From a virus (lineage: Duplodnaviria > Heunggongvirae > Uroviricota > Caudoviricetes), in the IMG/VR virus record IMGVR_UViG_2681813271_000010: a stretch of 13,134 nt of DNA. One strand, 5' to 3'. A program made the translations under genes and the position numbers. Under the pieces are notes generated by a model, which worked only from the letters and a program-made list of their open reading frames with translations, had not been told where the DNA came from and made no database searches. Positions 8,572 through 9,963 of this stretch are shown here, one piece after another. Numbering within the stretch: position 1 is the first letter of the stretch; every line of letters begins with the position of its first letter.

Positions 8572-8716
8572 GATTTTGTCGCCCTGCGTATCCGCGCTTT
8601 CGCGTTACGCTCAATCTGGATTAGCTTTTCTATATTTTTTCGCCTTTCCCGCTCCTCCTGGCGCAAGAGCCTTACATCATCTGCCAGTCTGGTTTCTCTT
8701 TTCGCCACAGAGAGCA
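8572..8716 (-). pseudogene. partial paralog of the C-terminal coding region of the 8736-9092 gene, bounded by N-runs
   Basis: 8572-8716 is about 90-95% identical to 8744-8889 and encodes ...AKRETRLADDVRLLRQEERERRKNIEKLIQIERNAKARIRRATK before running into N-run 8426-8571; an 11-N run (8717-8727) separates the copies. Confidence 0.5.
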
Positions 8717-8735
8717 NNNNNNNNNNNAAATTTAA

Positions 8736-9092
8736 TTATTCAGTTCTGGATTTTGTCGCCCTGCGTATCCGCGCTTTCGCGTTACGCTCAATCTGTATCA
8801 GCTTTTCTATATTTCTCCGCCTTTCCTGTTCCTCCTGGCGCAATAGCCTTACATCATCTGCCAGTCTGGTTTCTCTTTTTGCCACAGAGAGCATCCAGTC
8901 AAACGGCTCCACAACCGCACCGCAGATTTTACAGCGGACCTGACGCTCTTTTTCGTCAACCCGTACAGAGGCGTGATGGCAATATGGTCTTTCCGATGGC
9001 TCATAAAGAAAATTAACCTGATTACGAGGGTCATCCTCTTTTACCGGAAATAAAACGATATTGCTTAACTCATCTTCTGGTTTTATTTCCAT
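8736..9092 (-). CDS. hypothetical phage protein with Cys/His cluster and basic coiled-coil C-terminus (118 aa)
   Basis: ATG at 9092-9090 with AAAGGAGAGGAG upstream. MEIKPEDELSNIVLFPVKEDDPRNQVNFLYEPSERPYCHHASVRVDEKERQVRCKICGAVVEPFDWMLSVAKRETRLADDVRLLRQEEQERRRNIEKLIQIERNAKARIRRATKSRTE. Family not recognised. Confidence 0.6.
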   Translation of the reverse strand: MEIKPEDELSNIVLFPVKEDDPRNQVNFLYEPSERPYCHHASVRVDEKERQVRCKICGAVVEPFDWMLSVAKRETRLADDVRLLRQEEQERRRNIEKLIQIERNAKARIRRATKSRTE

Positions 9093-9126
9093 GCTCCTCT
9101 CCTTTGATGCGAATGCCAGCGGTAAT

Positions 9127-9519
9127 TGAAGCCTGATAGCTAATTTCACTCACAGTACCGCCTCCTGAAAATCACCCTGATAGAAAGCCGGTACACGCTG
9201 CATAACTTCACTCTTCCGGCACTCGCGACAGATTATGTTCTGATGTCTGTCGTAGCGGCGTATTTCTCCGTCTGGTAATGACCAGATAAGGTCCGGATCA
9301 ACCACAGATGGTTTCTTCAGCTTTGCCCTCGAGAGTTTTTTGCGGGCGTTTTGCCAGTCCTTACGAGCCTGTTCAGACGGGAATAACCCGTAGCCAGAGT
9401 TGTATACATCCCCACTGGCAACCAGCTCTCTGGCGAGAACGCTTATTAAATATCTTGTCGCCCCGGTTTTAGCTTCCAGTTGTCGTAACGTCTCGCGCCC
9501 ACTCTGGCGTACGAGTTCA
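9127..9519 (-). pseudogene. 5'-truncated paralog of the 9541-9963 gene, in tandem
   Basis: 9127-9519 aligns with 9521-9913, beginning with the same AGCCTGATAGCTAATTTCA; the first ~260 nt are about 90% identical, then diverge. The copy lacks its start, which would lie beyond the single n at 9520. Confidence 0.5.
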
Positions 9520-9540
9520 NAGCCTGATAGCTAATTTCAT

Positions 9541-9963
9541 TCACAGTATCGCCTCCTGAAAATTACCCTGATAGAAAGCCAGTACACGCTGCATAGCTTC
9601 GCTCTTCCGGCACTCGCGACAGATTATATTCAGGCGCCTGTCGTAGCGGCGTATTTCTCCGTCAGGTAATGACCAGATAAGGTCCGGATCAACAACAACC
9701 GGTTTCCTCACCTTTACTCTCGAGAGTTTTTTGCGGGCGCTTTGCCAGTCCTTGCGAGCCTGTTCAGACGGGAATAAGCCGTAGCCAGAATTATATACAT
9801 CACCACTTGCGACCAGTTCTATGCATAAGCGACCGACAGACGCACGACTGATACCTGTTTCATCTGACAACTGCCGAATCGTGACCCGACCGTCCTGATG
9901 CACGAGTTCCACAATTCGCGTCTTCAGTTCTTCCCGCTGTTCGGGAGTAAAAGGTTTCGCCAT
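9541..9963 (-). CDS. hypothetical phage protein with predicted N-terminal winged-HTH (140 aa)
   Basis: ATG at 9963-9961 with AGGAGG upstream, 15 nt after the DnaC-like stop. MAKPFTPEQREELKTRIVELVHQDGRVTIRQLSDETGISRASVGRLCIELVASGDVYNSGYGLFPSEQARKDWQSARKKLSRVKVRKPVVVDPDLIWSLPDGEIRRYDRRLNIICRECRKSEAMQRVLAFYQGNFQEAIL. Confidence 0.65.
   Translation of the reverse strand: MAKPFTPEQREELKTRIVELVHQDGRVTIRQLSDETGISRASVGRLCIELVASGDVYNSGYGLFPSEQARKDWQSARKKLSRVKVRKPVVVDPDLIWSLPDGEIRRYDRRLNIICRECRKSEAMQRVLAFYQGNFQEAIL

Follow-up and report, generated by a model that had tools for sequence, protein, structure and literature searches.

The stretch analysed here, referred to as the window, is 13,134 nt long and comes from IMG/VR virus record IMGVR_UViG_2681813271_000010 (Caudoviricetes). 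It is a scaffold, with ten segments of ACGT letters separated by nine runs of N (637-662, 1807-1837, 2548-2558, 3393-3619, 5546-5556, 8426-8571, 8717-8727, 9520 and 12931-12955). Between a gene for the epoxyqueuosine reductase QueH and a DnaC/IstB-like ATPase gene lie a small Zn-ribbon gene and a winged-HTH gene of the DUF977 family, each accompanied by a partial second copy. The features of this region are listed below, A and B denoting two related chromosomal loci that are described further on.

7637-8323, minus strand: QueH gene (Pfam E=2e-65)
8426-8571: 146-N scaffold gap
8572-8716, minus strand: stand-alone 145-nt contig between the 146-N and 11-N runs, a Zn-ribbon gene fragment
8717-8727: 11-N contig join; runs of equal length at 2548-2558 and 5546-5556
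8728-9148, minus strand: B-locus part of contig 8728-9519, with the complete Zn-ribbon gene and the spacer to the DUF977 3′ end
8736-9092, minus strand: Zn-ribbon gene, 118 aa
9058-9148: 91-nt stretch identical in A and B, branch point of contig 8728-9519
9149-9519, minus strand: A-type tail of contig 8728-9519, 371 nt, paralogous DUF977 gene
9520: single-N join, between contigs that would overlap by 390 nt if both came from one locus
9521-9963, minus strand: start of contig 9521-12930, which carries the true DUF977 gene of locus B and then the DnaC-like gene
9541-9963, minus strand: DUF977 (winged-HTH) gene, full, 140 aa
9978-10724, minus strand: DnaC/IstB-like ATPase gene

The product of the full DUF977 gene matched Pfam family PF06163 (E=1e-33, 116.5 bits) and also gave a winged-HTH match to HTH_24. 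The truncated copy scored 82.5 bits against PF06163, so that with a cut-off of 22.1 both copies lie above the gathering score. The initial annotation had given the winged-HTH gene the span 9541-9913, which falls short of its true start at 9963. The match of the 118-aa protein to Zn_Ribbon_TF was weak and sub-threshold. The QueH gene has as its neighbour, at 7254-7466, a toxin gene of hok/gef type that is named hokD in the finished genome; both cargo genes of the prophage remnant are kept in finished Shigella/E. coli loci. Two minus-strand ORFs that resemble replication initiators, 10731-11000 and 11188-11529, flank a perfect hexanucleotide array at 11079-11117 (TCTTCC, 6.5 copies). The array differs in length between the window and L126, L053 and L001 (two finished loci and a gap-free contig introduced below), where alignments break or show indels at the array.

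The partial copy of the DUF977 gene was recovered by two routes. A repeat search paired 9130-9429 with 9521-9820 at 90% identity, and TRF reported a repeat at 9129-9909 with a period of 391, 2.0 copies and 81% matches. Ungapped alignment of 9130-9519 with 9521-9910 gave 75 mismatches in 390 nt, most of them in the last 90 nt. This terminal part, which encodes the HTH, is about half identical, and the 3′ 300 nt of the gene are 90% identical. The truncated winged-HTH copy that had been described at 9127-9519, with an n at 9520, is thus present, but the identity of roughly 90% assigned to it holds only over the 3′ 300 nt and is 81% overall. The copy is the 3′ 369 nt of a gene (9150-9518; 122 codons and a stop), in an open frame with no premature stop. 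It is cut exactly at the contig end, 9519, and the second copy begins at 9521. Being in frame, free of stop codons and severed at a contig end, it fits an intact gene divided by assembly rather than a decaying pseudogene. As written in the scaffold, the tandem junction reads ...GTACGAGTTCA joined to AGCCTGATAGC... and the 5′ end of the A-type DUF977 gene, absent from the contig tail, reads ...ACAACCTGCCCCTTAATTTTTTCCCGCTCTTCCTGTGTAAATACTTTTGCCAT. The full-length A-type protein, read from L053, has 140 aa and is, in exact form, a very common Shigella protein.

The second piece, 8572-8716, is 94% identical to 8749-8893 within the main Zn-ribbon gene (137/145 identical, 8 mismatches). It had been described as a copy of the 3′ end of that gene, 90-95% identical and bounded by N runs; identity and bounds were borne out, although the piece lacks the last 13 nt of the gene and its stop codon. 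Over lengths of 145-390 nt, the identities of both pairs are far above chance.

Both duplications end at gaps. All three direct-repeat families of the window stop exactly at N runs, and the coincidence of repeat edges with assembly gaps every time makes real duplication junctions at these places very unlikely. The recurrence of an 11-N run at three joins (8717-8727, 2548-2558 and 5546-5556) makes it look like a placeholder gap. Segments of the window align collinearly, with overlapping ends, to a complete E. coli chromosome (L001) and to complete chromosomes named Shigella sonnei by their sources. Window position 8425 corresponds to position 10403 of L126, the locus in the closest finished genome, and window position 8728 to its position 10365, so that 37 nt truly lie between. 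The scaffold has 302 characters in this place (146 N, the 145-nt piece and 11 N), compared with 37 nt in the finished genome.

Other joins in the window show related irregularities. A 281-nt repeat, D2, occurs at 2267-2547 and 5557-5837 with 100% identity, and each copy abuts an 11-N run. It comprises the 3′ end of a DUF1364 gene and the start of a DUF1133/Q-like gene. In finished genomes the flanking contigs simply overlap there (L001 1095-1375; L126 12991-13271). The 3 kb between the D2 copies (2559-5545) are foreign to the locus and hold an ORF6N/antirepressor-like gene, a 227-N gap, a fragment of a Q-type antiterminator and an IS4 transposase at 4190-5536. The D2 region is a second, larger scaffolding artefact of the same kind as the DUF977 and Zn-ribbon duplicates. 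At the junction 1806/1838, the first 21 nt of the right contig also occur inside the left contig, at 1719-1739. The left contig then extends a further 67 nt (1740-1806) that have no match to the reference locus, which gives a fork of the same shape as at 9520. This left contig (663-1806) matches L126 3369-3900 on one strand (663-1194) and L126 13850-13680 on the other (1569-1739). It thus joins sequences that in L126 lie 10 kb apart and inverted, with IS elements between, and is either a strain rearrangement or another chimeric contig. The fork overlaps were considered as a means of estimating a de Bruijn word size, but they measured 19 nt at 9521, 21 nt at 1838, 281 nt at D2, and 47 and 13 nt at the SNPs within the 145-nt piece. 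Because the overlaps are inconsistent, no single assembler model fits all the joins, and we name no assembler.

Finished relatives of the region have a simpler arrangement. In L001 (FDAARGOS_944, the best complete E. coli match) the genes run DUF1133 < DUF1364 < DUF1367 < hyp < hokD < QueH < hypothetical (Zn-ribbon) < DUF977 < ydaV < ... < Cro / cI, each of them single. The interval from the DnaC-like gene to QueH contains a single DUF977 and a single Zn-ribbon gene in L001 and in every one of L122-L131, and the order DnaC-like > DUF977 > Zn-ribbon > QueH is single-copy in all the finished relatives examined. This is locus B, which adjoins QueH-hokD and lies beside modABC-galE in finished genomes. 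In the closest of these, CP180280.1 (L126, of Shigella sonnei type), it is found at 3.56-3.58 Mb. Two parts of the window correspond to locus B exactly: six complete chromosomes (L122, L124, L126, L127, L129 and L130) match 8728-9148 (421 nt) at 100% identity, and these six and L053 match 9521-9963 (443 nt) likewise. By exact protein look-up, the Zn-ribbon protein of the window was identical in the complete, IS-rich chromosomes that were matched. Source names for the exact DUF977 and Zn-ribbon proteins were such as Shigella sonnei and Shigella, and one record was HE616528.1, which we take to be S. sonnei 53G.

Pairs of the kind written in the scaffold were sought among these relatives. None of 148 related loci held a tandem DUF977 or Zn-ribbon pair. 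In 5,426 complete E. coli genomes the best-ranked places likewise lacked one, the query 8728-9963 (1,236 nt) spanning 792-845 nt there. A true tandem at ≥ ~84% identity would have outranked all but the top two E. coli records, both of which span 845 nt. A pattern for the tandem junction with one wildcard base was not found in IMG/VR. A single E. coli genome can carry DUF977 modules in as many as 6-7 places, which makes paralogs the rule.

One such paralog accounts for the extra DUF977 copy. The 462 nt at 9058-9519 are 100% identical to a different locus, A, as represented by L144, L145 and L147. This locus is another prophage remnant, which carries DnaC-like, DUF1627, DUF977 and Zn-ribbon genes of its own and is flanked by dmsC/ynf genes and ydfZ-dcp, a position that we take to be the Qin prophage site. 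In CP180280.1 it lies at 2.23-2.25 Mb (L145), 1.3 Mb from locus B, and its DUF977 gene is full-length (140 aa). The two loci are present together on complete chromosomes, 0.9-1.3 Mb apart, CP104423.1 and CP146292.2 being further examples; their relative orientation is the same in CP180280.1 and opposite in CP104423.1. The A and B modules are 80-95% identical, with short perfectly identical stretches. The A-type end alone occurs in >120 IMG/VR contigs. A homologous-protein search, which covered only representatives of 90%-identity clusters, did not return the exact A allele, its hits being at most 94% identical to the query.

The SNP table and mismatch lists place a change of allele within contig 8728-9519, which is of B type up to 9148 and carries the A allele from 9149. 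As a refinement of the initial annotation, the extra winged-HTH copy is not a free-standing fragment but the tail of the Zn-ribbon contig, which switches paralog in the 91-nt stretch shared by A and B. L044, an A-type contig of another assembly in which the locus spans the whole contig, stops at the window equivalent of 9113, inside this stretch, which indicates that assemblers break there. The 200-nt B-to-A hybrid at 9030-9229 was absent from IMG/VR, GTDB representative genomes and JGI metagenomes. A shorter pattern of 106 nt (9050-9155) did occur in nine IMG/VR contigs, but these carry other alleles, 87-95% identical over 8728-9519, and were rejected as support for the hybrid.

The 145-nt Zn-ribbon piece could be traced only approximately. 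At all eight differences from the main copy it has the A-type base, and at the three 3′-most informative sites it has B-type bases. It differs from locus A of finished genomes by 3 mismatches, compared with 8 for locus B. Its sole exact match is the Zn-ribbon gene beside the A-type DUF977 gene in L053 (IMGVR_UViG_2690316346_000006), a gap-free 13.5-kb contig from another isolate. The piece is best described as a fragment of a paralogous, A-like Zn-ribbon allele that was probably misplaced inside the gap. Because of the 3 mismatches to finished A loci and the patchwork nature of L053, its origin is less certain than that of the winged-HTH fragment.

L053 carries both modules in its region 5431-11121, 3.7 kb apart, with an A-type DUF977 gene at 5431-5868 and a B-type gene at 9117-9539. 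It has three Zn-ribbon copies in mosaic A/B states, separated by an IS3-type element (6379-7643) and a full IS1 (9927-10694), the latter with ~314 nt of Zn-ribbon sequence on each side. Such an arrangement could have come about by genuine IS-mediated rearrangement, or else by a mis-join at the IS repeats. We considered L053 as evidence for a real second copy nearby and rejected it, since its modules are joined via the IS3-type element and IS1 and are in mosaic states. Because it may be mis-joined, it was used solely as the source of the exact match for the 145-nt piece.

Taken together, the sequence comparisons make it highly probable that the tandem "truncated paralogs" are a false duplication, produced by scaffolding a fragmented draft assembly. 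This agrees with the initial annotation, which had explained the copies as pieces of paralogous prophages of one genome that became collapsed or concatenated at assembly: the edges lie at N runs, finished genomes have a single copy, the copies correspond to loci A and B, exactly so for the winged-HTH gene, and no tandem turned up in the other assemblies searched. The events might be reconstructed as follows. The source genome would be of Shigella sonnei / E. coli type, with at least two lambdoid prophage remnants sharing a DnaC-like > DUF977 (winged-HTH) > Zn-ribbon module, and the assembler would have broken or switched paths at short stretches identical in A and B. Contig 8728-9519 would begin in locus B, pass through 9058-9148 and continue into the locus-A DUF977 gene up to the contig end, and the true locus-B DUF977 gene would open the next contig at 9521, 19 nt ahead of the first A/B difference. 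The scaffolder would then have rightly placed the Zn-ribbon contig beside the contig with the B-type DUF977 and DnaC-like genes. The contig ends, overlapping by 390 nt at 81% identity, could presumably not be merged and were butted with one N, which would yield the 391-nt pseudo-tandem repeat. The orphan 145-nt A-like contig would have ended up in the gap next to it, which in reality measures 37 nt. The contig structure, the single copies of finished genomes and the exact identity of the pieces to different loci of one chromosome were observed directly; the assembler step behind the switch, and its probably in silico nature, are inferred.

A real partial tandem duplication of the DUF977 and Zn-ribbon genes, followed by divergence, with the Ns standing for low-quality bases or small gaps, would take the sequence as written, and the partial Zn-ribbon copies around IS1 in gap-free L053 illustrate that duplicated fragments of this gene may turn up in an assembly free of Ns. 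Yet both junctions fall exactly on N runs, with no uninterrupted sequence across, and the copies match two distant loci of finished chromosomes at 100% rather than each other. Their mosaic divergence (~50% identity in the HTH part, 90% elsewhere) is what old phage alleles, rather than a recent duplicate, typically show. With the pair missing from the 148 related loci and the top-ranked E. coli places, and the junction pattern from IMG/VR, we regard this explanation as extremely improbable; the initial annotation had likewise held it the less likely one. A mixed sample or heterogeneous culture, in which the assembler kept alleles of one locus from two strains or from a subpopulation, is also very unlikely. 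Diverged copies with a gap between them are a signature of uncollapsed haplotypes too, but the joins at D2 and 1806/1838 suggest fragmentation driven by paralogs and IS elements, and the co-existence of both alleles as separate loci in several finished chromosomes makes a mixture unnecessary.

The B-to-A transition of the hybrid contig could be real, the product of recombination between the prophage modules (for example an A/B inversion), with contigs of the recombinant loci interleaved in the scaffold; the tandem would still be false. The differing orientation of A and B in CP180280.1 and CP104423.1 indicates that rearrangements between or around these loci occur in the lineage, and the mosaic Zn-ribbon copies of L053, together with the B-type 3′ end of the 145-nt piece, could reflect gene conversion. 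Against this, the 200-mer is in no other contig of the three collections searched, and the switch coincides exactly with the longest run of A/B identity close to the fork, the place at which L044 breaks, a pattern that an in silico path switch would give equally well. We therefore consider a real hybrid unlikely. It is slightly more doubtful still that contig 8728-9519 is true as it stands, with the Zn-ribbon gene of the modABC-side remnant fused to the DUF977/replication genes of the Qin-like remnant. If so, a Shigella sonnei-type chromosome would have undergone homologous exchange between prophages, probably an inversion on the megabase scale. Whether the contig tail is a path switch in silico or a true recombinant, the tandem duplication is false.

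If the window were read literally, annotation or pangenome counts would gain a truncated DUF977 gene and a Zn-ribbon fragment, both false, and a spurious "gene gain" or "pseudogene pair" would result. The value of the observation is in quality control only; it makes no biological question more testable. A simple rule can be given for Enterobacteriaceae drafts rich in IS elements and prophages: diverged repeats with edges at N runs ought to be regarded as scaffolding artefacts.

Compared with known systems, locus B is unremarkable as a lambdoid replication module of Rac/Qin type. Modules of this type in E. coli and Shigella carry ydaV (DnaC-like), DUF977 and a small Zn-ribbon gene, and the window has the same order, DnaC-like > DUF977 > 118-aa protein > QueH > hokD. 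Its proteins are identical to widespread Shigella/E. coli entries, and no difference is left once the artefact is removed. Scaffolding by SSPACE and ABySS uses a minimal N placeholder where neighbouring contigs predicted to overlap fail to merge. The single N between homologous ends of 390 nt that are too diverged to merge resembles this placeholder, although the fork overlaps of 19, 21 and 281 nt misfit one simple model. Among the published hallmarks of false duplication is a gap that separates the two copies on the same scaffold (Ko et al. 2022, Genome Biol 23:205, PMC9516828). The false duplications of that study share with the present case diverged copies and a gap on one scaffold, edges that are contig ends, and a single copy in a better assembly. 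Those duplications derived mostly from diploid haplotypes ("heterotype"); in the present haploid genome, by contrast, the second copy would come from a paralogous prophage remnant elsewhere on the chromosome. The feature thus involves no new biology and belongs to the known class of gap-flanking false duplications.
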